Positions 2,926 to 51,066 of a DNA stretch of 64,000 nucleotides are shown here, in pieces. The position numbers and the translations under genes are program-made. Every line of letters begins with the position of its first letter. The stretch's first letter is position 1. This DNA comes from an uncultured Eubacteriales bacterium (lineage in GTDB: Bacteria > Bacillota > Clostridia > Oscillospirales > CAG-382): the NCBI GenBank assembly GCA_900548115.1, contig URJL01000005.1:2434-66433 (forward strand). The letters are read 5' to 3'. The notes under the pieces were generated by a model. It was given only the letters and a program-made list of their open reading frames with translations. It did not search any database and had not been told where the DNA came from.

Positions 2926-4361
2926 ATACAGTTTTTGAAAATACGGAGCATTACGATGCGCATTTCCCGCCCGAACAGGAAGAATACGCTTTGCGCGTGC
3001 AGAAAATCCTGTCCGAGCGGGCAAAAACCGAGGACAAAAAGCCCGGCGCTTTCATCGTCACCTTCGGCTGTCAGCAGAACGAAGCCGACAGTGAGCGGCT
3101 GATGGGACAAGCCGTTCTTCTCGGCTATCGGCGGGTAACGTGCGCTGAGGACGCCGACCTCATTCTCTACAACACCTGCGCCGTGCGCGAGCACGCGGAG
3201 CTTCGCGCGCTTTCCCGCACGGGAGCGCTCAAGCATCTGAAAAGTCAAAACAAGAATCTTTTGATCGGTCTTTGGGGCTGTATGGTCACGCAGGATCACC
3301 GCATGCAGGACGTAAAAATGAAATATCCCTACGTCGATTTTGTCGCGGGGACCAACATGCTGCACCGTCTGCCCGAGATCCTGTGCGACGTTCTCGAGAG
3401 CGGACGCCGCCGTTATTATGTCACGAATGACCCGCCGCAAACCGTCGAGGATGTTCCCGTACTGCGTGAAAACGACATCAAGGCATACGTTTCGATCATG
3501 TACGGCTGCAACAATTTCTGCACCTACTGCGTCGTGCCGTATGTGCGCGGACGCGAGCGAAGCCGCGACCCCGAAGCGGTCATCCGCGAGGTCGAGGGGC
3601 TGGTGCAAAGCGGCTGCCGCGATATCACGCTGCTCGGTCAGAACGTCAATTCCTATGCGCCCGCGGGAGGCATGAATTTTGCCTCGCTTCTGCGCCGTCT
3701 TGCCGAAATTCCGGGCGATTTTCGTCTGCGCTTCATGACCTCGCATCCGAAGGACGCGTCCGACGAGCTGATCGAAGTCATGGCGGAAAACGAAAAGATC
3801 GCGCGGCATTTTCATCTGCCCATGCAGTCGGGCAGCACCGAGATTTTGCGCCGTATGAACCGCAAATACACGGCGGAAAGCTATCTTTCCCTTGCCGAAA
3901 AGATCAAGGAAAGAATTCCCGATATCACTCTTACGACCGACATTATCGTCGGTTTTCCCGGCGAGACCGAGAAGGATTTCGAGGACACCTTTTCGATGGT
4001 CGAAAGACTGCGTTTCGATTCGGTCTTTTCCTTCATCTTCTCGCCCCGCGTCGGAACGCCTGCGGCGGATATGGAGGACGACACGCCCCACGAAGAAAAG
4101 ACCGCCCGCATGAACCGTCTTTTGAAGCGGCAAGCCGACATCGCCGCCGAGGATCATGCAAAGCTTGTCGGAAAAACACTTTCCGTTTTGTGCGAGAGCA
4201 AAGAGCCGAACGAAAACGGGCTTTATCTCGGCCGCACGAGCGGCAACATTTTGGTCTTTTTCGAAAGCGGCGCGCAAAACGGCGCGCTTTACGGGCAGTT
4301 TGTCCCCGTTCGCATCACCGCGTCGGGCGCCGCCAATCTTTCGGGAAAGGCAGAAAAATAA
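2922..4361 (+). CDS. miaB: tRNA-2-methylthio-N6-dimethylallyladenosine synthase (radical SAM methylthiotransferase)
   Basis: N-terminal MTTase domain VTFGCQQNEADSE; radical-SAM CxxxCxxC in GCNNFCTYCVVPYVRGRERSR; C-terminal TRAM-like domain. Classic position upstream of mutS-mutL. Confidence 0.9.
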   Translation: MNTVFENTEHYDAHFPPEQEEYALRVQKILSERAKTEDKKPGAFIVTFGCQQNEADSERLMGQAVLLGYRRVTCAEDADLILYNTCAVREHAELRALSRTGALKHLKSQNKNLLIGLWGCMVTQDHRMQDVKMKYPYVDFVAGTNMLHRLPEILCDVLESGRRRYYVTNDPPQTVEDVPVLRENDIKAYVSIMYGCNNFCTYCVVPYVRGRERSRDPEAVIREVEGLVQSGCRDITLLGQNVNSYAPAGGMNFASLLRRLAEIPGDFRLRFMTSHPKDASDELIEVMAENEKIARHFHLPMQSGSTEILRRMNRKYTAESYLSLAEKIKERIPDITLTTDIIVGFPGETEKDFEDTFSMVERLRFDSVFSFIFSPRVGTPAADMEDDTPHEEKTARMNRLLKRQADIAAEDHAKLVGKTLSVLCESKEPNENGLYLGRTSGNILVFFESGAQNGALYGQFVPVRITASGAANLSGKAEK

Positions 4362-10891: not shown

Positions 10892-10930
10892 GCAAAACCC
10901 GACCGCAGACGCGGTCGGGTTTGCTTTATA
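10892..10930 (+). terminator. intrinsic terminator after tgt
   Basis: GCAAAACCCGACCGC-AGAC-GCGGTCGGGTTTGC followed by a T-rich tail. Confidence 0.7.
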
Positions 10931-10953
10931 ATTACATATTCTTTACCAAGCGA

Positions 10954-10979
10954 AAAGAGCGCCCGCGAGCGCTCTTTTT
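10954..10979. terminator. second hairpin, probably a bidirectional terminator (serves the minus-strand membrane gene)
   Basis: AAAGAGCGC-ccgcga-GCGCTCTTT flanked by an A-run and a T-run. Confidence 0.5.
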
Positions 10980-23067: not shown

Positions 23068-23097
23068 AAAGCCCCTCCTTTCGGAGGGGCTTTATTT
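23068..23097 (+). terminator. intrinsic terminator after the SGNH gene
   Basis: GAAAGCCCCTCC-TTTC-GGAGGGGCTTT followed by ATTTGC. Confidence 0.7.
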
Positions 23098-23116
23098 GCT
23101 GTGCAAAGCACACAAA

Positions 23117-23150
23117 GCGGGAGAGCTTTCGCTCTCCCGCTTTTCGTTTT
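23117..23150. terminator. second convergent-gene terminator hairpin
   Basis: GCGGGAGAGC-TTTC-GCTCTCCCGC followed by TTTTCGTTTTC. Lies between the convergent + and - genes. Confidence 0.6.
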
Positions 23151-24440: not shown

Positions 24441-25679
24441 TCAAAGAGTAAAGACCGTGTGACGGTAGACGGTGTTTTCCGTCTCCAGCTTCTTTATGTA
24501 CGCGTCGTATTCTTCGTCGCTCGTGTTTTCTTTCCAAGCAAGCATCTGTCCCTCGGGGCAAATGATCGTGTTGCCGAAAATGCGGTAATCGTGCGGGATC
24601 TTTGCCGTTCCGCCGGTTTTGAAGATCGTCATGGCGCGCGGATTGACAAAGGTGTTGCCGCTTACGGTGATGTCGCATATAGGGCAGTCCAGATGATACA
24701 TCAGAAGATGCGTGGACGCGGTTTTGTCGGGACGAACCGCGTAACTCCAGCCGTAACCCGATTCGATACAGAGATTGTTGCGGAAGCTGCAATTTACGAA
24801 ACCGCTGTTCGGCAGATTGCCGCTGCACCAGATTTCAAAACTGTGCTGATTGTTCCACATGATATTGTTGTCAAAGTGAACGTTTTCCCAATTGTGCTCA
24901 TGCGGACAGCCCTGCATCGTCACGGCAACGTCGTAGATACCCGAAAACTTGCAGTATTCCACCGTAATGTCGTGCGAATTTCCGCCGCATTCCACACCGT
25001 TTCCGTAACGGGTGTTGGGAGTCGAGAACCCTTTCAGGTGCGAGCCGCCGATTTCATGAAATTCGCAGTGCGAAATGTGCGTATACGAACCTCTGCCGCA
25101 GATACCGTGCGCGCCGGTGCCCATAAACGTAATGTTTTCGACCTTCACATACGTGCTCAGCAGCATGCAGTGGATGTTGCAGGCGATGCGGATGTCGTCC
25201 GAAAGCTCGGACGGCGCTTTTTCGGAATAGACGTACATATATTGCTTTTCGCTGAAAAAGTCCCACTGAGCGGCAAGCTTGTCGTACTCGAAAATCTTAT
25301 GGGGATAGATTTTTCCCGAGACCTTGATAAAGCCGACATTGTCGTCGCCGTCGATCACGTTTCCCGTGTACTTTGACGTATCCCAAAGGTCGATACGGTA
25401 GATATTTTCCGAAACCTTTTCCCATGCGTCCGCTTTTGCGATCTTATATTCGGAGAGGATCGGATTTCTTCCCTCGCCGTAAGCGCCGAAGGTCGTCGGC
25501 TGTTCCTCCGTTCCCATCGGGGGACGGATCTGTCCGAAAAAGGTGTCGCCGCGGCGCAGAAGAAGAGTGTCGCCGCCCTGTATCGTCTCGCGCGCTTTTC
25601 CGATCGTCTCAAAGGCTTTTTCGGGGGAAAGACCGTCGTTTGCGTCGTTTCCCGCACCGGATACATAATAAATACTCAT
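24441..25679 (-). CDS. right-handed parallel beta-helix repeat protein, paralog 2
   Basis: Collinear with paralogs 1 and 3 over the full length. Same motifs. C-terminus ...TSDEEYDAYIKKLETENTVYRHTVFTL. Confidence 0.75.
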   Translation of the reverse strand: MSIYYVSGAGNDANDGLSPEKAFETIGKARETIQGGDTLLLRRGDTFFGQIRPPMGTEEQPTTFGAYGEGRNPILSEYKIAKADAWEKVSENIYRIDLWDTSKYTGNVIDGDDNVGFIKVSGKIYPHKIFEYDKLAAQWDFFSEKQYMYVYSEKAPSELSDDIRIACNIHCMLLSTYVKVENITFMGTGAHGICGRGSYTHISHCEFHEIGGSHLKGFSTPNTRYGNGVECGGNSHDITVEYCKFSGIYDVAVTMQGCPHEHNWENVHFDNNIMWNNQHSFEIWCSGNLPNSGFVNCSFRNNLCIESGYGWSYAVRPDKTASTHLLMYHLDCPICDITVSGNTFVNPRAMTIFKTGGTAKIPHDYRIFGNTIICPEGQMLAWKENTSDEEYDAYIKKLETENTVYRHTVFTL

Positions 25680-25709: not shown

Positions 25710-26951
25710 TTACAGCGTAAAGACCGTGTGACGGTAGACCGTATTTTCTTCTTCCAGCTTCTTTACATATGCGTCATACTCTTCGTCGCTCGTCTTGTCC
25801 TTCCATGCAAGCGGCTGACCTTCGGGACAAATGATGGTGTTGCCGAAAATCTTATAATCCTTCGGCATTTGGCAAACGCCTCCCGCTTTAAAGACCGTCA
25901 TATTGCGTGCATTGACAAAAGTATTGCCCGTAACGGTGATGTCGCAAAGAGGACAACCGATTCCGTACAATAAAAGATGAGTCGAAGCGGTCTTGTCGGG
26001 ACGAACCGCGTAGCTCCAGCCGTAGCCCGATTCGATGCAGAGGTTGTTTTCAAAATGGCAATCGACAAAACCGGTGTCCGGTACATCGCCGCTTGACCAG
26101 ATCTCGAAGCAGTGCTGGTTGTTCCACATGATATTGTTGGTGAAATGCATATTGGTCCACGAGGTCTTGACGGGTCTGCCCTGCATGGTGATGGCAACGT
26201 CGTAAACGCCCGAGAATTTACAGTGATCGACCGTAATGTTGGCGGAGTTTGCCCAGCATTCCACGCCGTTGCCGTAACGGGTATTGGGCGTCGGGAAGCC
26301 GTTCAGCTCCGAGCCGCCGATCTCATGAAATTCACAGTTGTAAATATACGCGCCGTTCGAAACACCGTTGATACCGTGTGCGCCCGTGCCGCGGATAATA
26401 ATGTTTTCGACCTTCATGTGGGTTGTAAAAGGGATACAGCCGATCTGGCACGCGAAGCGGATGTCGTCCGAAAGCTCGGACGGGTTCTTTTCGGAATATA
26501 CGAAAACATACCGGTCGTCGTTATAAAAATCCCATTGAGCCGCAAGCTTTTCAAGTTCGAAGATCTTGTGCGGGAAGATCTTGTTCGAAACCTTCAGGAA
26601 TCCGACGTTGGTGTTGATCTCGGACGTGTTGCCCGTAAACTTTGCGGTATCGGTAAGATCAAGCTTGTAGACCTTTTCCGAGACCTGTTCCCAAGCGTCC
26701 GCATTTGCGATCTTATACTGCGAAAGAGTCGGCTTTGCGCCCTCGCCGTACGAACCGACGCTTGTCGGCTGTTCGGGAGAAATACCCGCCGGAAGCTTTA
26801 TCTGTCCGTAAAAGGTATCGCCGCAATGCAAAAGAACGGTATCGCCGCCCTTAAGAACCTCGCGAAGCTTTATAACGGTGGCAAACGCCTTTTCGGGCGA
26901 AAGTCCGTCGTTTGTGTCACAGCCCTTGTTCGATACATAATATGTACTCAT
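25710..26951 (-). CDS. right-handed parallel beta-helix repeat protein, paralog 3
   Basis: Collinear with paralogs 1 and 2. First gene of the tandem set, downstream of the candidate promoter at 27047-27076. Confidence 0.75.
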   Translation of the reverse strand: MSTYYVSNKGCDTNDGLSPEKAFATVIKLREVLKGGDTVLLHCGDTFYGQIKLPAGISPEQPTSVGSYGEGAKPTLSQYKIANADAWEQVSEKVYKLDLTDTAKFTGNTSEINTNVGFLKVSNKIFPHKIFELEKLAAQWDFYNDDRYVFVYSEKNPSELSDDIRFACQIGCIPFTTHMKVENIIIRGTGAHGINGVSNGAYIYNCEFHEIGGSELNGFPTPNTRYGNGVECWANSANITVDHCKFSGVYDVAITMQGRPVKTSWTNMHFTNNIMWNNQHCFEIWSSGDVPDTGFVDCHFENNLCIESGYGWSYAVRPDKTASTHLLLYGIGCPLCDITVTGNTFVNARNMTVFKAGGVCQMPKDYKIFGNTIICPEGQPLAWKDKTSDEEYDAYVKKLEEENTVYRHTVFTL

Positions 26952-27212: not shown

Positions 27213-28496
27213 TCAAAGTGCAAGCCCTTCGACGGCGCTTCGCACCTCCTGCGAAAAATACAGCGTTCCGAGCGCGGCGCATACGCCGTCCTTTCCCGCA
27301 TTTTGTGCGGCGGCATTCACCGCCGTTTCGATCGAACCGAACGCTTCGGCTTTGCCGCCGAGAGAGCGGATTCTTTGCGCCAGTTCCTCCCCCGTCATGG
27401 CGCGTGGGTTGGGCGCGGTCACGGTATAAAAGCGCTCCGCCTCGGGAAGAAGGAGCGACAGCATCGTCGAAACATCCTTGTCCGCCATGGCGCCGAGAAC
27501 GAAGTGCAGCTTTTGCTCTCCGAAATATTGACGAATCGCGTCAACCGTCGCGCGCATGCCGTGCGGATTGTGCGAACCGTCGAGAAGAAAGACCGGCTCT
27601 TTGCGCAATACCTCAAAGCGCCCTTTCCAGACGACTTCGGAAAGTCCGCGGCGGATGTCTTCATCGGAAATGCTGTATCCCCGCATGCGGAGCACCCTTG
27701 CCGTTTCGATCGCAACGGCGGCATTGCACGGCTGGTAGGTCCCGATGAGGGGAAGGTGCAGACCGGAAAGCGCGCCGTAGGAAAAATCGATTCCGTCGAG
27801 CGAATATTTCTGTACCGAAAGAAGCGAAAAATCGGGTGCGGTAAGCGGGCAATGCTTTTCCTTTGCCGCCGAACGAATGACCTTTTCGACGCTTTCTTTT
27901 TCGGGATACATCACGACGGGCGCATTTTCTTTTAAAATTCCCGCCTTGACGGCGGCGATTTTTTCAACGGTATCGCCGAGATACGCGGTGTGATCCAATC
28001 CGATCGCACAGATGACCGAGCAGGCACATTCGGGCGCTTCGATAACGTTCGTGGAATCGAGCGTTCCGCCCATTCCGACCTCCAGAACCACAAGATCACA
28101 CTTTTTCTCGAGAAAATACAGCATGGCGGCGGCGGTGATGACCTCAAATTCGGTCGGCGGGTCGTCGGTCATGGCATCAGCGGCGGGACGGATGGTCTCC
28201 ACAATATGAATCAGCTCATCGTCCGTGATGTTTTGCCCGTCGACCTGCATACGCTCGTTAAAAACCGTAATGTAGGGCGAGGTGTAAAGCCCGACGCAAA
28301 ATCCGCTTTCGCGCAGAATCGACGCGATCATGGCACAGGTCGAGCCTTTGCCGTTCGTGCCCGCAACGTGAACGAATTTCAGCGATTTCTGCGGGTCGCC
28401 GAGCGCACCGAGAAGGCGGCGCGTGCGCGAAAGTCCCGGCTTTGTGCCGAGCCATTTGGTTTTGTGGATATACGAAAGTGCCTCTTCAATGTTCAT
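27213..28496 (-). CDS. folC: bifunctional folylpolyglutamate synthase / dihydrofolate synthase
   Basis: Mur-ligase P-loop HVAGTNGKGST. Overall FolC sequence (GLYTSPYI, VLEVGMGG, LDGSHNPHG). 4-nt overlap with folT. Confidence 0.92.
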   Translation of the reverse strand: MNIEEALSYIHKTKWLGTKPGLSRTRRLLGALGDPQKSLKFVHVAGTNGKGSTCAMIASILRESGFCVGLYTSPYITVFNERMQVDGQNITDDELIHIVETIRPAADAMTDDPPTEFEVITAAAMLYFLEKKCDLVVLEVGMGGTLDSTNVIEAPECACSVICAIGLDHTAYLGDTVEKIAAVKAGILKENAPVVMYPEKESVEKVIRSAAKEKHCPLTAPDFSLLSVQKYSLDGIDFSYGALSGLHLPLIGTYQPCNAAVAIETARVLRMRGYSISDEDIRRGLSEVVWKGRFEVLRKEPVFLLDGSHNPHGMRATVDAIRQYFGEQKLHFVLGAMADKDVSTMLSLLLPEAERFYTVTAPNPRAMTGEELAQRIRSLGGKAEAFGSIETAVNAAAQNAGKDGVCAALGTLYFSQEVRSAVEGLAL

Positions 28497-29026
28497 TTTT
28501 TAACAACTCCCCGTTCGGAAAAATACGGATGACGGATCAAAAGACAAAGCGCGGCGGCGTCGAGAACCGTCTCGATCGCGGCAAACGGAATCCGTGCGAC
28601 AAGGGTCGGGAAAAACGGACTGCCGAACATCACCGACAAAACGGCGGTCTTATACAGCACAGCGGCAAAAAGATTGGTCAGAACAACGCTTGCAATCAGA
28701 AGAAAAACGCGTCCGCGCGCGGGCAGGATCTTTCCCGAAAGACGATAGACCGCCGGCGGCAAAACACCGATCAGCCCCATGCCGACCGAAAGCGGAACAT
28801 TCGGCGCATAGCCCGAAAGAAAACAGCCGATAACATCGGCGAGAATGCCGCAGATTCCGCCGTACAAGGGACCGCAGAAAATGCCCGCCGCCATGACGGG
28901 AATGTTCCCGAGCGTAAGGCGCACGGTGCTCGAGCTCGGCGAAAAGCCGAGATAGCGGGTCAGAACGACGCTCAGCGCCGTTAAAATTCCCGTGGCGGTA
29001 ATGCAATAGATTGTTTTGTGCTTCAT
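28493..29026 (-). CDS. folT: folate-family ECF transporter S component
   Basis: Start at ATG 29026 (MKHKTIYCITATGILTALSVVLTRYLGF...LTLGNIPVMAAGIFCGPLYGG). Six-TM S-component pattern. Preceded by a THF riboswitch and followed by folC. Confidence 0.85.
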   Translation of the reverse strand: MKHKTIYCITATGILTALSVVLTRYLGFSPSSSTVRLTLGNIPVMAAGIFCGPLYGGICGILADVIGCFLSGYAPNVPLSVGMGLIGVLPPAVYRLSGKILPARGRVFLLIASVVLTNLFAAVLYKTAVLSVMFGSPFFPTLVARIPFAAIETVLDAAALCLLIRHPYFSERGVVKK

Positions 29027-29099: not shown

Positions 29100-29198
29100 G
29101 ACAGCGGGATGCGGAAGCCGTACCGCAAGGCGATCTTTTCGTCCGAAAGACAACTCCCCGTCCTTTCGGCACTTTACGCACGGCAACCTACTCTGTCC
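29100..29198 (-). promoter_or_regulatory. THF (tetrahydrofolate) riboswitch
   Basis: Minus-strand RNA: GGACAGAGUAGGUUGCCGUGCGUAAAGUGCCGAAAGGACGGGGAGUUGUCUUUCGGACGAAAAGAUCGCCUUGCGGUACGGCUUCCGCAUCCCGCUGUC. It carries the conserved THF-class blocks as I recall them from the published E. siraeum folT aptamer: AGUAG, GCGU-AAGUG, a GGGA loop for the pseudoknot with CAUCCC, ACGAA, GCAUCC-GCU. P1 is GACAG/CUGUC. Location upstream of folT is the canonical context. Confidence 0.8.
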
Positions 29199-29205
29199 AA
29201 AGCTT

Positions 29206-29234
29206 ATTATAATACGAAGAAGCGGAAAATGCAA
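29206..29234 (-). promoter_or_regulatory. candidate sigma-A promoter of the riboswitch-folT-folC unit
   Basis: Minus strand: TTGCAT (29234-29229), 17 nt, TATAAT (29211-29206). The predicted start site sits at the riboswitch 5' end. Confidence 0.6.
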
Positions 29235-29235
29235 G

Positions 29236-29763
29236 CGCTTTTTACGAAAAAGCGGCAAAATATTCCCTCCCCTGCGGGGATCGTTTGCCGCCGCTGCGCG
29301 GGGCGTTGCCGCCCCTGCGGGGAGCGTTGCCGCCCCTGCGGGGAGCGTTGCCGCCCCTGCGGGGAGCGTTGCCGCGAAGATTGCATTCTGATGGTCAGAA
29401 TGCAACTTCGCCTTACCCACGTTATGCTGACCTAAGATTTTGATGCGTAATGAAGCCTTCCCCTTGAGGGGAAGGTGGCACGAAGTGACGGATGCGTCAC
29501 ATCACAAGTGATGTGAGAGAAATTTTGCCTGTGGCAAAATATTCCCGTGCGCCCGCGAAGCGGGCGAGCCGCAATAGCAACTTTCGGTGAGACAAACCCT
29601 TGTGCGCAGTCGTAAAAGCCTCTTTTGCCGTATTCTTCTTTTGCCATCGCCCGCAAACGGGCGGTGTTTGCCCTTCGGGCGGAGTTCCTTTTTCTTTCGT
29701 TTCCGAAAGAAAAAGAAACCAAAAAGAAAGGGAATTTAAGGGCTTGCGCCCTTAAAAATTCCC
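29236..29763. other. dense array of short unrelated stem-loops in a gene-free island
   Basis: At least 16 consecutive hairpins (coordinates in findings). No RBS-preceded ORF. The only open frames are repeat-driven. Confidence 0.8.
29269..29374. repeat. 21-bp tandem repeat, 5 copies (3 perfect, 2 degenerate)
   Basis: Unit CCCCTGCGGGGAGCGTTGCCG. Perfect copies at 29312-29332, 29333-29353 and 29354-29374. Degenerate copies at 29269-29290 and 29291-29311. Each unit contains a CCCC-TGC-GGGG mini-hairpin. Confidence 0.9.
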
Positions 29764-29932
29764 CGATTGTACAGAGCTGTTACGCTCAATCAAAAACGGT
29801 ATGCTTGTCTTTACTGTTATTACAGGTCGCACTTTACGCGATGAAATTGTACGAAATAGGAAAAGAACAAAAAGCAGGGGCATCGGTCGCCCGCACCTAC
29901 AGCGAGTAATGTTATGCCTTTTCCCGTCTTTT

Positions 29933-31195
29933 TCAAGCGTTCGGCGCTTCCTCTTTACCTTTTCCGCCCTTTACCTCCGACGGATACAAAACCGCAAGTC
30001 CTCCCTCCGCCGTCTCGCGATAGCGGCAGGAGAGGTCCTTTCCCGTCTCATAAAGAGTGCGGATAACAAGATCGAGCGAAATTTTTCGGTTTTCGTACAG
30101 CATTTCGGCAAGGCTCACCGCGTCGACCGCACGCATGGCGGCGACGGCGTTGCGTTCGATGCACGGAATCTGCACCAATCCGCGAACGGGGTCACAGGTA
30201 AGTCCCAAGTGGTGCTCGAGCGCAATTTCCGCGGCGCATTCGATCTGCTTCGGATTCATTCCTTTAAGATAGGCAAACGCTGCCGCCGCCATGCCGCACG
30301 CGCTTCCGATCTCCGCCTGACAGCCGCATTCCGCGCCGCTGATCGAAGCGTTGGTCTTGATTAAATTTCCGACGATCCCCGCGACCTCAAGCGCCGAGAT
30401 CAGCTCCTCATCCGAGTAGCCGCGCTCGCGCTGTTTAAACAGCAAAACCGCGGGCAATACGCCCGACGCGCCGCACGTCGGTGCCGTCACCATTTCTTCG
30501 CCGCAGGCATTTTCTTCGCTTGCGGCGTAGGCATACGCCGAAATCAGATAAATTTCCTTTTCGTGACCGTAATCCTTGCCTTGCCCGATCGCAAACAGCT
30601 TTTTGGCTTTGCGGGGGATATTCAAGCCTCCGGGAATGATTCCCTCGTCCGCAAGACCGTTTTTCACCGTTCGTTTCATGCGGTCGAGTACCAGCGCCAT
30701 ATACGCGCGAAGCTCTTTCCCCTCATACTTTTCCGCATATTCGGGAAGCGTGAGATTTTCCTTTATGAGCCGCTCCTCGATAGCGGTAAAGCTTATGTCG
30801 GGATACGGCAGGACCTCTTTCTTCTCCTTTTCGTCGGCAAATCGGATCGCACCGCCGCCGATGCTGTAAACGGTCTTGCGGCACAAAAGTTTGTCGCCCG
30901 CAAAGGCGGCGATCTCCATCGTATTGGGATGAGCAAGATCGGTCTTTTCGTTATCGAAAACGATGGAAACGCGATCCTCGCCGAGCGTTTTGCGGATGGC
31001 ATAATCGGTTCGGTGTCCTTTTCCCGTCTTGGAAAGCGAGCCGTACAGCGTCACCTCAAAGCGCGTCGCGTCGGGATACCGTTCTTTGACCGCGCGGCAG
31101 GCGTGCGACGGTCCCATGGTATGCGAGCTGGACGGTCCGCGTCCGATCCGATAAAGCTCGGTAAGTGACGCCATTCCGTGTGCTTTTTCTTTCAT
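29933..31195 (-). CDS. sdaA: L-serine ammonia-lyase (iron-sulfur dependent, single-chain type)
   Basis: N-terminal LYRIGRGPSSSHTMGP. C-terminal alpha-domain with APTCGASGVLPAVL and GAECGCQAEIGSACGMAAAA. Confidence 0.9.
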   Translation of the reverse strand: MKEKAHGMASLTELYRIGRGPSSSHTMGPSHACRAVKERYPDATRFEVTLYGSLSKTGKGHRTDYAIRKTLGEDRVSIVFDNEKTDLAHPNTMEIAAFAGDKLLCRKTVYSIGGGAIRFADEKEKKEVLPYPDISFTAIEERLIKENLTLPEYAEKYEGKELRAYMALVLDRMKRTVKNGLADEGIIPGGLNIPRKAKKLFAIGQGKDYGHEKEIYLISAYAYAASEENACGEEMVTAPTCGASGVLPAVLLFKQRERGYSDEELISALEVAGIVGNLIKTNASISGAECGCQAEIGSACGMAAAAFAYLKGMNPKQIECAAEIALEHHLGLTCDPVRGLVQIPCIERNAVAAMRAVDAVSLAEMLYENRKISLDLVIRTLYETGKDLSCRYRETAEGGLAVLYPSEVKGGKGKEEAPNA

Positions 31196-31239: not shown

Positions 31240-31941
31240 TTATTGTTTTCGGTTCTGCGCGAAAAAGCAGTCGCGCACATACAAATAGCGGTTTTTGGAG
31301 ATCGGAACGGTTTCGCCCTCGGTCAGCTCGGCATGATAGCGCCGTACCGACGACACGAACGAAAGGTTGACTGCGTAGCTTTGATGGCAGCGCACAAAAA
31401 GCGAACCGCAAAGGCGCTCCAAAAATCCGCCGAGCGTCGATCGGCAAACAATACTGCGGTCGGCGAGATGAATGCACAGATCGTTGTGAAACACCTCGAT
31501 ATAGCGGATATCGGTCTCGCAGACACGGTATTTTTCCCCGTTCTTTGCGGCGATATACAAACGTCTTGCCGCCGGTCGAAAATCCGAAACATAATCGACA
31601 ATACCGCGCACCGTCTTTTCCGAAAGCGGCTTTTTGTATATGCCGAGATTGGGGACCGAAAGACCCGGCGGATTTTCAGACCCGCTCACAAAAACCGTGC
31701 GAACGGGATAACGCTCGACATAAAGCGCGCGCACAAATTCGACCATATCCTGTTCGCCGACCGTAAGATCGGTCGCGATGAGATCGAAAAGGCGGTCGTG
31801 AAGCGCCCGAAACAAGCGCTCGGAATCGAAAAACAGGTCGATCTTATATTCGATCCCGTATTCGTTCAAAACGGTTTGCAAAAGGTCGCGAAGCGCATAA
31901 AGATCGTTTTCCGCCGCATCGCAAAGTGCAATTCGAATCAC
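31240..31941 (-). CDS. LytTR-family response regulator
   Basis: Receiver domain (IRIALCDAAEND, FDLIATDL, VFVSGS, KKPL) plus C-terminal LytTR DNA-binding domain (IRYIEVFHNDLCIHLADRSIVCRSTLGGFLERL...FVRCHQSYAVNL). Start set at GTG 31941, with GGGGG 6 nt upstream. The ORF-track start 31962 is a TTG. Confidence 0.85.
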   Translation of the reverse strand: MIRIALCDAAENDLYALRDLLQTVLNEYGIEYKIDLFFDSERLFRALHDRLFDLIATDLTVGEQDMVEFVRALYVERYPVRTVFVSGSENPPGLSVPNLGIYKKPLSEKTVRGIVDYVSDFRPAARRLYIAAKNGEKYRVCETDIRYIEVFHNDLCIHLADRSIVCRSTLGGFLERLCGSLFVRCHQSYAVNLSFVSSVRRYHAELTEGETVPISKNRYLYVRDCFFAQNRKQ

Positions 31942-31971
31942 GCCCGTCCCCCTTTCTTTCAATTTCGTTGT

Positions 31972-33384
31972 TTACGGGTTTTCGTCTTTTGTCGGTTCGT
32001 ACTCCCCGATAGTGTAACCGTCGCGCCCGTTTTCCTTTGTTTTGTACAAAAGAGCGTCGGTCTGTTCCATCAGCTTCGGCAAGTCGGCGGGAAAGGAAAA
32101 ACGGCAGGCGCCGATACTGCAGGTGACTCTTTGCGAGTTTTCCAAAATACCTGCCGCCTCGGCGGCAAAAGAAGAAAGGCGCTTTTCAAGCTCGTGAGCG
32201 GAAAGCTCCGCCTTGTCGATCATAACGGCAAATTCGTCGCCGCCCATTCGCCCGCAGACGGCACAGTCGCGAAAATTCTTTTCCAAAAGAAACGCGACCT
32301 TTTTCAAAACGGTATCGCCGACGGCGTGTCCTAACGTATCGTTGATGGCTTTGAAACAATCGACATCCAAAATCAAGAACCATCCGTGCGCACATTTCTG
32401 TGTATCAAAATGCTTTTGCGCCCGTTCGCACAGATTTAGGAATATCCTTCTGCCCATAATACCCGTGAGCGCGTCCATTTCCCCGCGATAATTCCGATAG
32501 GCGCTGTGCTGATATCCCGCAATCAGGGTAATGACGCTGATCATGTTGAGCGAGAGCATGGCGACGGTAAATTCGATCTGCATATGAGAAATGTTATATA
32601 AGATCTCGGGTGCGACCGCGACGGTATGGGTTCGGAGCATGTGCGACATCCGCTCCAAAAAATAAACCGCTCCCGCGAAGGTCATGAAAACAATAAACAC
32701 GGTAAAGACCGTCACCGTGATCCGCTTGGTTTTAGAATTGTTTGCGGGAATATAGCGGGCGGAATCGATCGCCGTGCGGATATTTTGCATTTTTTCGTTG
32801 CGGTGAAGTTGTCGAACCCCGACCGCCAAAACGGCACAGAGAACCGAAGAAATCACATTGCTCATAACAAGATAGCAATTCCCGAAATATTCAAACGGAT
32901 GGTTCGAAAAGAAAAGCTGCATGGCGCCCATAACAAGCAGCGCCTGAGCCATAGGCGAAGCGAACGCCGCAAGCCCGACAAAAAGATTGGGATGCTTTGT
33001 CTTTTTCGCCGCCCAAAAAAGAAAACCGATCAAAAAGCCGAAAAGCGTTCTTGTTCCGACCGCCAGAATAAAGCTCCCGATGGGATTTCCGCTCATGAAA
33101 GGCGAAAAAAGCATATCCGCCGGAAAAATATAATACGACGTCGATTTATACATGCTCGCAAGACCGAAGACCGCGCCGATCGCGGCGGATTGCCATGTTC
33201 CGAGCAAAAGTGCTGCAATTAAGATCGGAATGTAAGCAAAGGTGACCGATATCGGCGGGATGTGAACGTATCCGAGAAAGGTGAAGGACATAAGAATTTC
33301 AAACGCCGCGAGAATCCAAAAAAGATAAAGATCAAAAGACGAATTCCCGCGTTTTTTCGGTTGCTCCGTAAACTTCACTCTCAT
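31972..33384 (-). CDS. polytopic membrane protein with C-terminal GGDEF (diguanylate cyclase) domain
   Basis: About 8 hydrophobic segments in the first ~290 aa. GGDEF domain follows (DALTGIMGRRIF..., INDTLGHAVGD, GRMGGDEFAV). Confidence 0.85.
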   Translation of the reverse strand: MRVKFTEQPKKRGNSSFDLYLFWILAAFEILMSFTFLGYVHIPPISVTFAYIPILIAALLLGTWQSAAIGAVFGLASMYKSTSYYIFPADMLFSPFMSGNPIGSFILAVGTRTLFGFLIGFLFWAAKKTKHPNLFVGLAAFASPMAQALLVMGAMQLFFSNHPFEYFGNCYLVMSNVISSVLCAVLAVGVRQLHRNEKMQNIRTAIDSARYIPANNSKTKRITVTVFTVFIVFMTFAGAVYFLERMSHMLRTHTVAVAPEILYNISHMQIEFTVAMLSLNMISVITLIAGYQHSAYRNYRGEMDALTGIMGRRIFLNLCERAQKHFDTQKCAHGWFLILDVDCFKAINDTLGHAVGDTVLKKVAFLLEKNFRDCAVCGRMGGDEFAVMIDKAELSAHELEKRLSSFAAEAAGILENSQRVTCSIGACRFSFPADLPKLMEQTDALLYKTKENGRDGYTIGEYEPTKDENP

Positions 33385-50651: not shown

Positions 50652-50768
50652 GCGTTTCACAGATTATTTACATTTATTCATCCCCTCGCGTTTTTCTTGA
50701 TTTTTCAAACAAAAAAAGCGCCGAAAGAAAAAATATTGCCGAAAAATTCGTTTTTTTCGAAAAAACTC

Positions 50769-50797
50769 TTGACAAAGCCCTTTGCTTTTGATATAAT
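50769..50797 (+). promoter_or_regulatory. consensus sigma-A promoter of the tRNA pair
   Basis: TTGACA (50769-50774), 17 nt, TGaTATAAT (TATAAT 50792-50797). About 45 nt upstream of tRNA-Met. Confidence 0.75.
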
Positions 50798-50842
50798 ATA
50801 CGAGCACGCGACGGAAGACTCCGATTCGCGCGGCACAAGCAT

Positions 50843-50919
50843 GGCGGAATAGCTCAGCTGGCTAGAGCATCCGGTTCATACCCGGCAGGTCACTGGTTCA
50901 AATCCAGTTTCCGCTACCA
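50843..50919 (+). tRNA. tRNA-Met (CAU), elongator type
   Basis: Cloverleaf: GGCGGAA/TTCCGCT acceptor (G1.U72, as in the B. subtilis elongator tRNA-Met as I recall it), D-arm GCTCAGCTGGCTAGAGC, anticodon loop TTCATAC, T-arm ACTGG-TTCAAAT-CCAGT, encoded CCA. Confidence 0.9.
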
Positions 50920-50953
50920 CATCGCCGGAGGGCAGCAGCCCTTTGGTTGATAC

Positions 50954-51028
50954 GGCCCGTTGGTCAAGCGGTTAAGACACGGCCCTTTCACGGCTGTAAC
51001 ATGGGTTCGATTCCCGTACGGGTCACCA
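50954..51028 (+). tRNA. tRNA-Glu (UUC)
   Basis: GGCCCGTTGGTCAAGCGGTTAAGACAC...CTTTCAC...GGGTTCGATTCCCGTACGGGTCACCA. Closely resembles the canonical Firmicute tRNA-Glu as recalled. Anticodon loop CTTTCAC. Confidence 0.92.
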
Positions 51029-51033
51029 CGAAG

Positions 51034-51066
51034 AAAAAAGCACTTGCTTTCGCAAGTGCTTTTTTC
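51034..51066 (+). terminator. intrinsic terminator after the tRNAs (palindromic, could act on both strands)
   Basis: AAAAAAGCACTTGC-TTTC-GCAAGTGCTTTTTT. Confidence 0.85.

Follow-up and report, generated by a model that had tools for sequence, protein, structure and literature searches.

The hairpin-rich island between sdaA and folT in a 64,000-nt stretch of DNA from an uncultured Eubacteriales bacterium (the window) is probably one full copy of an undescribed, non-coding, dispersed mosaic repeat of uncultured human-gut Clostridia, composite in its build and similar in kind to the REP, BIME and BOX elements. The copy lies on the minus strand at 29268-29918, is about 640-650 nt long, and fills the intergenic space from stop codon to promoter, extending from just past the sdaA stop to just short of the folT promoter. 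Since it is modular, dispersed, and strain-variable, the island is regarded here as a Gram-positive counterpart of REP/BIME/BOX and not as one big RNA. A nest of REP/MITE-like palindromes had been among the explanations offered in the first-pass annotation, and it is the one borne out, as every module has dispersed copies in which the module order is kept; what that annotation overlooked is that the hairpins are the ordered modules of one composite element.

Layout of the hairpin island

The island holds eight perfect stems of 7 bp or more whose loops measure 2-6 nt, against 0.27 +/- 0.50 in 500 dinucleotide shuffles (maximum 3), and stems of at least 6 bp number 11 against 1.1 in the shuffles. 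The whole 64-kb window contains 56 perfect stems of at least 7 bp, eight of which fall inside the island, i.e., within 1.1% of the window. Folded as single-stranded DNA, the island performs far better than its shuffles, with similar energies for both strands (z = -9.6 for minus and -9.3 for plus), and its centroid fold consists of local hairpins alone, without long-range helices.

All of the hairpins listed in the first-pass annotation are present where it had placed them, and its word GGCAAAATATTCCC does occur twice (29254-29267 and 29533-29546). Its description of the hairpins as mutually unrelated is true within the window, but all of them except the one at 29236-29254 are members of a dispersed repeat family. 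Four of the five CCCC-TGC-GGGG units that it had counted are exact, but the fifth is a compensated CCGC-TGC-GCGG, and the hairpin it had delimited at 29381-29405 reaches further, as an imperfect 18-bp stem at 29374-29411. The hairpins at 29485-29500 and 29497-29516 share 4 nt and are thus mutually exclusive. The claim that the region holds no credible ORF stands, given that short ORFs lose their frame between strains through 2-nt and 8-nt indels; a 43-aa small ORF at 29752-29883 was dropped because strain indels break its frame.

On the folT side, the island is bordered by the folT promoter (TTGCAT-17-TATAAT, 29206-29234, minus strand) and a THF riboswitch (29100-29197, minus strand; Rfam RF01831, 89.4 bits). 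The 8-bp hairpin CGCTTTTT-ACG-AAAAAGCG (29236-29254) abuts the folT -35 box and lies outside the repeat family; it is the only locus-specific hairpin, is invariant among all spanning strains, and has zero dispersed homologues among the metagenome loci (blastn bins 29220-29259). At the outer edge of the element lies GGGAATATTTTGCC (29254-29267, minus strand), which repeats part of the 29533-29546 module and is conserved in every spanning strain.

Read on the minus strand, on which all of the following modules are given, the window copy runs from a degenerate S unit through a T remnant, the X core, variable hairpins, the A module, and the long hairpin LH to five S units. The degenerate S-type unit GGCATAACATTACTCGCTGTAGGTGC (29893-29918) aligns with the GGCAAyrCyCgCCGyAGGyGC units, which stand ahead of the X core in other copies. 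The T module is represented by a remnant (29874-29892) whose form elsewhere is GGGCGACCGATGGTCGCCCCTAC; its 8-bp hairpin, intact in strains L023, L027, and L029, is lost in the window copy because 4 nt are deleted. The T module is also found in L035, L053, L063, L039, and L103.

The X core (29640-29865) is the best-conserved module, with 36 copies among the metagenome loci, all of which enter the conservation profile, while the alignment comprises 22; the nhmmer profile built from copies matches the window at E = 6e-109. A consensus scan together with column conservation marks a promoter-like TTGATT-16 nt-TACAAT inside X (29766-29793), the hexamers of which are nearly invariant in the 36 copies, whereas the 16-nt spacer is variable. 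Terminator scan and hairpin listing both identify the X main hairpin, GGGGAATTTTTAAGGGC-GCAA-GCCCTTAAATTCCC followed by TTTCTTTTTGG (29719-29764), which is conserved in the 36 copies; this hairpin with its T-run resembles an intrinsic terminator and probably ends sdaA transcripts here. The hairpin listing adds X hairpin 2, CTTTTTCTTTCG-GAAA-CGAAAGAAAAAG (29688-29715), whose 12-bp stem is perfect and whose 3' arm is swapped for GGGAAGAAAAC in several strains and copies. X hairpin 3, GCCC-GAA-GGGC (29670-29680), is a C-GAA-G mini-hairpin that is near-invariant in the 36 copies, and X hairpin 4 is CGCCCG-TTTG-CGGGCG (29648-29663).

Past the X core, a variable linker with the terminal recurring motif CCGAAAGTTGCTATTGCGG (29567-29647) is the switch point to alternative hairpin modules in strain L011 and in other copies. 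It is followed by the hairpin CGCCCGC-TTC-GCGGGCG (29550-29566), which is replaced by CGCCTAC-TTC-GTAGGCG in L014 and by CGCCCATGC-TTC-GCATGGGCG in L023. An optional multi-hairpin module (29485-29546) comprises GGGAATATTTTGCC-ACA-GGCAAAAT, TCACATCAC-TT-GTGATGTGA, and GTGACG-CATC-CGTCAC; it is missing from strain L014 and from several copies at other loci, and it has a compensated-stem variant, ATTTCATC-GCA-GATGAAAT, in L088 and L116. The hairpin CCTTCCCC-TCAA-GGGGAAGG (29456-29475) is elsewhere the symmetry center of head-to-head A-LH-S doublets (L088, L053b). The A module, ...GCATCAAAATCTTAGGTCAGCATAACGTGGGTAAG (29412-29455), has a degenerate internal hairpin in the window copy and ends in the GGTA(G/A)(T/G) foot that lies 5' of LH, i.e., of the long hairpin GCGAAGTTGCATTCTGA-CCA-TCAGAATGCAATCTTCGC (29374-29411). 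The element closes with five 21-nt S units in tandem, GGCAACGCTCCCC-GCA-GGGGC (29268-29373), one of which carries CCGC/GCGG; TRF places a repeat with a 21-nt unit and 5.0 copies at 29269-29375.

Dispersed copies and strain variation

Scanning of the LH core pattern GMATTCYGACCAYCRGAATKC against public metagenomes yielded 84 stretches with about 120 LH copies, mostly on contigs of the human-gut assembly OUQF01, which accounts for 48 of the 80 listed loci (contig coverage 6-8x); many of the matches lie at contig ends. The copies elsewhere are mostly intergenic, and 73 of the 80 distinct LH copies have a 17-bp stem. In blastn searches against the metagenome loci, every module has copies elsewhere in the same module order, with 5-91 homologues in every 20-nt bin of 29260-29899 and none outside 29260-29905. 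Stretches of about 500-640 nt that keep the order are found again at seven or more other loci, among them L035, L053 (twice), L088, L063, L039, L103, and L105, a Hadza contig is built of four tandem X composites, and the modules A, LH, S, T, and X and their linkers are found in variable combinations across loci.

Within the 64-kb window, blastn-short and nhmmer profiles of LH and X reveal no further copies. High copy number is directly seen only in another genome (OUQF01) and not in that of the window, and in the same-species comparison the OUQF01 loci and those of the window species share no overlapping genes. That the element is multi-copy in the window species is suggested by contig breaks and by two alternative junctions, in L019 and L029, which could also stem from strain mixtures or misassembly. 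Searches of plasmid and phage collections with the island (blastn) and of viral contigs with the LH pattern returned nothing. To gauge how widely X is distributed, the translation of a spurious ORF that spans it served as a protein query; it gave only 14 matches, all of them to short ENA contigs.

At the sdaA-folT locus itself, eight strains that are 96-97% identical in the flanks (sdaA, riboswitch, folT-folC) share only 80% identity in the island, with a minimum of 61%. The differences between strains take the form of whole-module replacement, deletion, and copy-number change. The S-unit copy number ranges from 1 to 6 in other strains, with a 43-nt unit in its place in L014, and the segment that sets L011 apart has matches of 86-88% in L050 and L042. 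Among same-species contigs, 14 of 24 end within the island and two join it to other genes. A conserved syntenic locus in relatives, a check named at the outset, was not found, as those with 67% (L002, L003) and 85% (L004) SdaA identity carry other genes directly downstream and no island.

Another conceivable origin is a neutral spacer whose perfect hairpins were generated on the spot by template-switch mutations during replication and are unrelated to other loci. As inferred from the published template-switch literature, such switching yields perfect palindromes as well as multi-base "compensated" differences between very close strains. However, the modules have homologues, arranged in the same order, at many loci and also in other genomes, and the strain differences are alternative family members, as exemplified by the L011 segment. 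As a sole explanation, the neutral spacer is already contradicted by the dispersed homologues, and we consider it extremely improbable, although template switching may be what keeps the arms complementary.

The first-pass annotation had also considered a protein-binding or insulating array. Direct repeats spaced by about 21 bp are bound by LytTR proteins, the gene of a LytTR regulator adjoins sdaA, and the S array, with its 21-nt period of two helical turns, lies directly upstream of the folT promoter; the 21-bp S repeats could in principle be the sites of that neighboring regulator, or iteron-like sites that regulate folT. This locus-specific function is nonetheless very unlikely. Hundreds of S-unit copies are spread over intergenic regions unrelated to this one, their number changes at this locus despite identical flanks (including the L014 unit), and compensated stem variation preserves structure rather than a sequence-specific site. 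The array thus lacks support as the main explanation, its units being spread over many unrelated intergenic regions in strain-variable copy number, whereas a secondary terminator or insulator effect of a dispersed mosaic repeat at the sdaA-folT locus is plausible.

Pairing, strand, and a possible mechanism

The arms of the hairpins co-vary between copies: 11 of the 17 LH pairs change on both sides, the covariation score is 0.397 versus 0.142, and 95.9% of cells are paired, with none of 500 shuffles reaching the pair-change, score, or pairing values. Among 123 LH copies, 79 sequences are distinct. In 105 distinct hairpins, 1272 pairs are Watson-Crick (about 97%), 15 are G.T, 10 are A.C, and 17 are of other types. 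Because Watson-Crick pairs dominate and G.T is about as rare as A.C, the hairpins are best described as DNA-level palindromes; neither these counts nor the folding of both strands yields an RNA-strand signal. On one strand, the loops of the S units read G-N-A or G-NN-A (in minus-strand sense, GCA 97, GTA 66, and GAA 19 across the whole family). This loop form agrees with the d(C-GNA-G) motif, a very stable DNA mini-hairpin (PMC3201870, PMC13037366).

The same observations weigh on the proposal of a single large structured ncRNA between sdaA and folT, similar to ROOL, GOLLD, OLE, or raiA. Its attraction lies in the exceptional folding energy (z about -9.5), the GNRA-like form of many minus-strand loops, and the covariation of the stems. 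However, the fold is a string of local hairpins only, a terminator-like hairpin with a T-run stands in the middle of the island, both strands fold equally, and 97% of the pairs are Watson-Crick, G.T being roughly as frequent as A.C. Additionally, strains whose flanks are 96-97% identical differ by the loss, exchange, or multiplication of modules, copies occur in either orientation relative to genes, and the region is absent in relatives at 67-85% SdaA identity. At the gathering threshold, Rfam yields only the THF riboswitch and tRNAs in the window, no known RNA family (including ROOL, GOLLD, OLE, raiA, and HEARO) on the island, and nothing at seven other element-rich loci; at E <= 10, the island gives nothing beyond chance, the best sub-threshold match scoring 25 bits where the gathering score is 80. 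With no Rfam match, local hairpins only, module swapping, and no orientation bias, the large ncRNA of the first-pass annotation is highly improbable.

A narrower role in RNA would be that the element, or at least its X core, acts as a functional RNA or a regulatory cassette present in many copies, in which TTGATT-16-TACAAT drives a hairpin RNA of ~45 nt ending at the T-run or in which the host uses a portable terminator-plus-promoter unit. The consensus scan picks up the promoter as well as the terminator, conservation across the 36 X copies peaks at the hexamers and the hairpin while the spacer varies, and the OUQF01 S arrays often adjoin the -35 boxes, ribosome-binding sites, or stop codons of neighboring genes. 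Yet X shows no orientation bias relative to the upstream gene (12 same, 14 opposite), it has no Rfam family, and G.T pairs are not enriched. As the X copies are 75-90% identical overall, the conserved hexamers may just reflect recent common ancestry. We consider a cassette of this kind unlikely. The orientation of LH relative to flanking genes likewise shows no significant bias.

The island is more readily explained as a selfish, non-autonomous element of the REP/BIME/BOX kind, which would spread and be reshuffled through recombination between copies and tandem slippage, probably with the help of a trans-acting enzyme that recognizes the hairpins in single-stranded DNA. The complementarity of the arms would be kept by intrastrand template switching (quasipalindrome correction) and not by slow RNA-level compensation, and the strand with the C-GNA-G loops is expected to be the one that folds. 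Locally, the X hairpin with its T-run (29719-29764, minus strand) would act as the sdaA terminator, and the remaining hairpins would separate sdaA transcription from the riboswitch-controlled folT promoter. Against a purely selfish element, the promoter-like hexamers in X, which barely vary among copies, give a hint of some function under selection besides selfish spread. Furthermore, the spread may have occurred through recombination alone, without transposition.

A mobilizing enzyme was sought, with tests of low power, across ~0.6 Mb of sequence. In this span, tblastn with approximate IS608 TnpA and E. coli RAYT queries gave no candidate, a regular-expression search for the HUH...Y motif over all six-frame ORFs gave no Y1/HUH candidate, and all-against-all blastp revealed no multi-copy gene. 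A weak match in L041 was dropped as a glycosyltransferase-like ORF. A bolder proposal is that the repeats are the footprint of an undescribed mobile-DNA system of gut Clostridia acting on single-stranded DNA hairpins, in which an enzyme, perhaps no classical RAYT, would read LH and the C-GNA-G mini-hairpins on one strand, X would be a promoter-terminator minigene for a multi-copy tiny hairpin RNA, and the element would supply terminators, promoters, and even stop codons to abutting genes; this we regard as speculative and rather unlikely.

Relation to known repeats and significance

The closest parallels are the REP and BIME elements of Enterobacteria and Pseudomonas, including the REPINs with their RAYT/TnpA-REP Y1 HUH transposases. 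Both they and the window family are extragenic, high-copy palindromes near gene ends, of which about 120 LH copies are seen here, mainly in OUQF01, with one copy in the window. Both form mosaic arrays with conserved non-palindromic linker motifs, found here in variable combinations with the palindromes, and both have co-varying stems and strain-variable copy number and arrangement. Head-to-head A-LH-S doublets, reminiscent of REPINs, occur at some loci of the window family (L035, L088, L053b, and L103), and an LH pattern scan adds L036 and L047, although the head-to-tail tandem arrangement, to which the window copy belongs, is at least as common. The short purine-rich GGTA(G/A) foot 5' of the hairpin is comparable to the GT[AG]G of REPs (PMC6006769, PMC3733652). 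In 80 distinct LH copies, the 5' flank has the consensus AACAnnGGTA(G/A)(T/G), with GTAG within 9 nt in 33 (41%) and GT[AG]G in 35.

The two differ in sequence, with no similarity between them and no resemblance to the E. coli REP consensus by eye, and in host, which is a lineage of Clostridia here, whereas GTAG REPs were confined to Proteobacteria, Cyanobacteria, Chloroflexi, and PVC in a survey of 2013 (PMC3733652). The unit described here is also far larger (~640 nt, with at least 10 different palindromes in fixed order), it combines a 17-bp stem with arrays of 4-bp GNA mini-hairpins, and no RAYT was found with the approximate queries in the ~0.6 Mb.

Pneumococcal BOX elements, boxA-(boxB)n-boxC, share with the window family a Gram-positive host, a variable tandem inner module, an intergenic location, strong predicted secondary structure, and strain variation (PMC3049150). 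They are likened to it by architecture and not by sequence comparison, consist of other modules, and belong to an unrelated host lineage; the window element is longer and has many distinct perfect palindromes. Minisatellite-bearing MITEs (BrickBuilt of Porphyromonas gingivalis, PMC4596501) and Correia/ERIC-type elements are likewise non-coding, dispersed, and intergenic, with a variable tandem array and possible promoter-like and terminator-like signals. However, the window copy lacks TIRs and a target-site duplication, and no parent IS was identified: across 29180-29990, there are no terminal inverted repeats at the element ends and no flanking direct repeat, the search returning only a 13-nt pair of 85% identity, at chance level, in the folT promoter and the sdaA coding sequence. 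The stem-loop sequence (SLS) families of bacterial genomes (PMC2267715) are also repeated intergenic sequences defined by hairpin folding, but they form a generic catalogue, against which the window family is set by description only. The S units are no CRISPR array, being contiguous 21-nt tandem repeats without spacers, and the CRISPR-DR matches in Rfam reach 15 bits against a threshold of 39.

Mosaic palindromic repeats of the REP/BIME type are textbook features of Proteobacteria and, to our knowledge, are hardly documented in Clostridia; the family described here means that an abundant, fast-reshuffling equivalent exists in uncultured human-gut commensals. It explains short-read assembly breaks, such as the 14 contig ends within the island and the dozens of OUQF01 contigs that start or end in LH, and it offers strain-typing markers comparable to the targets of REP-PCR and BOX-PCR. 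It also calls for caution with intergenic "structured RNA" candidates in MAGs, which may be repeat mosaics, and the element represents a natural library of compact terminator-like hairpins. Watson-Crick perfection, arm covariation, and strand-specific GNA loops together point to a single-stranded-DNA mechanism and a putative enzyme.

Hairpin content and setting of the island

The island, 698 nt long, separates the sdaA stop codon (TGA, 29933-29935 on the minus strand) from the folT promoter (TTGCAT-17-TATAAT, 29206-29234). It contains eight perfect stems 7 bp or longer, with loops of 2-6 nt, against 0.27 ± 0.50 expected from 500 dinucleotide shuffles, and 11 stems of at least 6 bp against 1.1; the eight belong to a class with 56 hairpins in the whole 64-kb window. 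When folded as single-stranded DNA, both strands score about 9.5 SD better than shuffles. Every hairpin listed in the first-pass annotation was recovered, as were both copies of the 14-mer GGCAAAATATTCCC, with the corrections that two hairpins overlap by 4 nt and that the 11-bp hairpin forms part of a longer, imperfect stem of 18 bp (29374-29411). The five units described as CCCC-TGC-GGGG are also present, one of them as a compensated variant (CCGC/GCGG), and TRF reports a 21-nt unit in 5.0 copies at 29269-29375.

Downstream of the folT promoter come a THF riboswitch (29100-29197; RF01831, 89 bits in Rfam) and the operon of folT (ECF S-component) and folC (folylpolyglutamate synthase) at 27213-29026, assigned from Rfam and precomputed Pfam; a THF riboswitch ahead of folT-folC is a standard arrangement. 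On the other side, a LytTR response-regulator gene lies directly upstream of sdaA (31240-33384), an adjacency kept in the relative L004 at 85% identity (L004:4553-6561), and is preceded in the window species by a GGDEF membrane protein; the LytTR regulator may control the serine dehydratase. Elsewhere in the window, identical 18-nt hairpins, CGTCCGAAAGCTCGGACG, occur 1.27 kb apart (25196-25213 and 26465-26482), probably inside a pair of beta-helix (Pel9A-like) paralogues that lie downstream of folC. At 10895-10978, 23068-23143, and 50740-51066, strong perfect hairpins with stems of 10-15 bp stand back-to-back; they share no similarity with the island modules and resemble ordinary bidirectional terminators.

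A dispersed composite element

The long hairpin (LH) was sought through a degenerate pattern of its core, GMATTCYGACCAYCRGAATKC, which matched 84 stretches of the metagenome collection; contig pieces of the human-gut assembly OUQF01 account for 48 of the 80 loci listed. ERZ808246 and Ga0256404 also contain members of the family; the remaining matches, devoid of family flanks, were set aside as chance. The OUQF01 contigs with an LH match all have 6-8x coverage and often carry the match at their extreme end; the uniform coverage suggests that the pieces derive from one genome. Common to the copies is a composite architecture, in which an A module (...ATCAAAATnTTATGTCAACATAACAnGGGTAG..) is followed by LH (consensus GTGAAATTGAATTCyGA-CCA-TCrGAATTCAATTTCAC) and then by n mini-hairpin S units of ~21 nt (GGCAAyrCyCnCC-GyA-GGnGC).

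The first-pass annotation had named blastn as a means of telling a conserved locus from dispersed copies, and dispersed homologues were found: between 5 and 91 among the metagenome loci for each 20-nt bin from 29260 to 29899, and none at 29200-29259 or past 29920. Among the collected loci, 36 copies of the X core (29640-29865) occur; its most conserved columns are those of TTGATT and TACAAT, set 16 nt apart with a variable spacer, and of the hairpin and T-run that follow. The modules stand in window order over ~500-640 nt at L035, L053 (twice), L088, L063, L039, L103, and L105, and a Hadza contig (L116:1-1459) consists of four X composites in tandem. Given these dispersed homologues and the module order recurring at other loci, 29268-29918 is one full-length copy of the composite element. 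The stem-loops had been called mutually unrelated; all are modules of the dispersed family except the 8-bp hairpin abutting the folT -35 box (29236-29254), the sole locus-specific one. A REP/MITE-like nest, one of the readings first proposed, is correct in kind, and a protein-binding or insulating array is not supported. Within the 64-kb window, profile searches picked up this copy alone. High copy number is seen directly in OUQF01, a genome other than that of the window; in the window species, more than one copy is indicated indirectly, by contig breaks and two alternative junctions.

Turnover of the island between strains

One human-gut metagenome scaffold (L001) is identical to the window. 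The island is absent from two Clostridia MAGs with SdaA 67% identical, in which another gene begins ~25 nt past sdaA, and from L004 (SdaA 85% identical), in which a convergent beta-lactamase-family gene lies 85 nt past sdaA; it is therefore not a conserved syntenic feature. Among 24 same-species contigs (SdaA 98-99% identical), eight span sdaA to folT, 14 end within the island, and two connect the island to unrelated genes. In these two (L019:1599-2132 and L029:1415-2464), the SdaA alleles are the same as in spanning contigs and the island is joined to a Na+/H+ exchanger in one and to DUF378 and methyltransferase genes in the other, by either real rearrangement at repeats or chimeric assembly through them.

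Across the eight spanning alleles, island identity averages 80% (minimum 61%), as against 96.5% for sdaA, 95.8% for the promoter-riboswitch segment, and 97.2% for folT-folC. Rather than scattered substitutions, the differences are exchanges of whole perfect hairpins with the loop retained, such as TTGCATTCTGA-CCA-TCAGAATGCAA for TCGAATTCCGA-CCA-TCGGAATTCGA and CGCCCGC-TTC-GCGGGCG for CGCCTAC-TTC-GTAGGCG. Modules also differ in presence or absence, and the tandem array ranges from one to more than six units in short-read assemblies, which may misreport copy number; L014 has a 43-nt unit in its place. A 91%-identical orthologue (L115:1-474, 2944-3314) of the OUQF01 locus L072 has flanking islands that differ in content, and hypervariability therefore holds in that lineage too. 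The last ~13 residues of SdaA differ between strains (positions 408-417; window 29933-29975, minus strand) and are unaligned in relatives of 65-72% identity (94-97% query coverage); the 3' end of sdaA may run into repeat-derived DNA.

Since the alternative segments are themselves family members, the differences between strains would stem chiefly from recombination or gene conversion involving other copies and from slippage. In L011, for instance, a variant segment matches L050 and L042 at 86-88% identity.

Palindromes, placement, and kinship

The LH stem is 17 bp in 73 of 80 distinct copies, and 79 distinct sequences occur among 123 copies. Aligning 47 distinct copies leaves 95.9% of cells paired, and both partners vary at 11 of the 17 pairs (110 cells). 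The covariation score reaches 0.397, whereas shuffles give 0.142 (0/500 as high) and slid partners at most 0.095. The stems of 105 distinct family hairpins hold 1272 Watson-Crick, 15 G.T, 10 A.C, and 17 other pairs, and are essentially perfect DNA palindromes, showing neither the G-U enrichment nor the strand asymmetry expected of selected RNA helices. No Rfam family, including the large RNAs named for that scan in the first-pass annotation, matched in the island at the gathering threshold, and E <= 10 gave chance-level matches only (the best scoring 25 bits where the gathering score is 80); a large structured ncRNA is not supported. Plasmid, phage, and viral-contig collections also returned no island match. 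As G.T or A.C intermediates are as rare as other mismatches, arm complementarity would be kept at the DNA level, by intrastrand template switching or repair in a folded single strand.

On the element forward strand (window minus), the S-unit loops are closed by C-G and read GCA (97), GTA (66), or GAA (19), or are of the G-NN-A types GCAA, GTTA, GCTA, and GTCA (9-15 each), a strand-specific feature of the family. They match the d(C-GNA-G) motif, which forms unusually stable DNA mini-hairpins (PMC3201870, PMC13037366). X hairpin 3 (GCCC-GAA-GGGC) likewise has a G-N-A loop, and X hairpins 2 (GAAA) and 1 (GCAA) have G-NN-A loops.

The great majority of OUQF01 copies lie between genes, in gaps of 50-1600 nt, and LH and X show no significant orientation bias relative to flanking genes. 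S arrays there often reach coding boundaries (e.g., L039:1130-1230, L055, L088:499-600, L050, L063:984-1090, L072); many end in GGTTA, the reverse stop codon of a convergent gene, and others directly adjoin a -35 box (TTGACA/TTGATT) or a ribosome-binding site (AGGAGG), which suggests that the element supplies or tolerates stop, promoter, and ribosome-binding signals at gene boundaries. Head-to-tail arrays occur, as do head-to-head doublets centered on a CCTTCCCC...GGGGAAGG hairpin at some loci. We infer terminator, promoter, and mobility roles: the X hairpin and T-run (29719-29764), ~170 nt past the stop, are the likely sdaA terminator, which the rest of the element would separate from the folT promoter.

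The element is a dispersed, intergenic, modular palindrome repeat whose sub-units vary in tandem number and whose modules turn over rapidly from strain to strain. Its closest kinds are REP/BIME/REPIN elements (PMC2817692, PMC3116915, PMC3733652, PMC6006769), the modular pneumococcal BOX element (PMC3049150), and MITEs with internal minisatellites (PMC4596501), although the window copy shows neither terminal inverted repeats nor a target-site duplication, the hallmarks of MITEs. By analogy with IS200/IS605 and REP-RAYT, propagation probably involves an enzyme recognizing hairpins on one DNA strand. The 5' foot of LH is GGTA(G/A)(T/G), with GTAG in 41% of copies; a 2013 survey placed GTAG REPs in Proteobacteria, Cyanobacteria, Chloroflexi, and PVC, with Firmicutes not listed (PMC3733652), and RAYT-like genes are reported from Clostridia (PMC5581495). 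Neither a RAYT nor another candidate gene for a hairpin-recognizing enzyme was found in ~0.6 Mb of incomplete genomes searched with approximate queries, and membership in a REP-RAYT system is unproven. The literature searched, incomplete in coverage, held no prior description of the family. The element is an apparently undescribed instance of a familiar class of bacterial repeat, and the discovery of a dedicated hairpin-recognizing enzyme, or of an X minigene that functions, would raise its interest.
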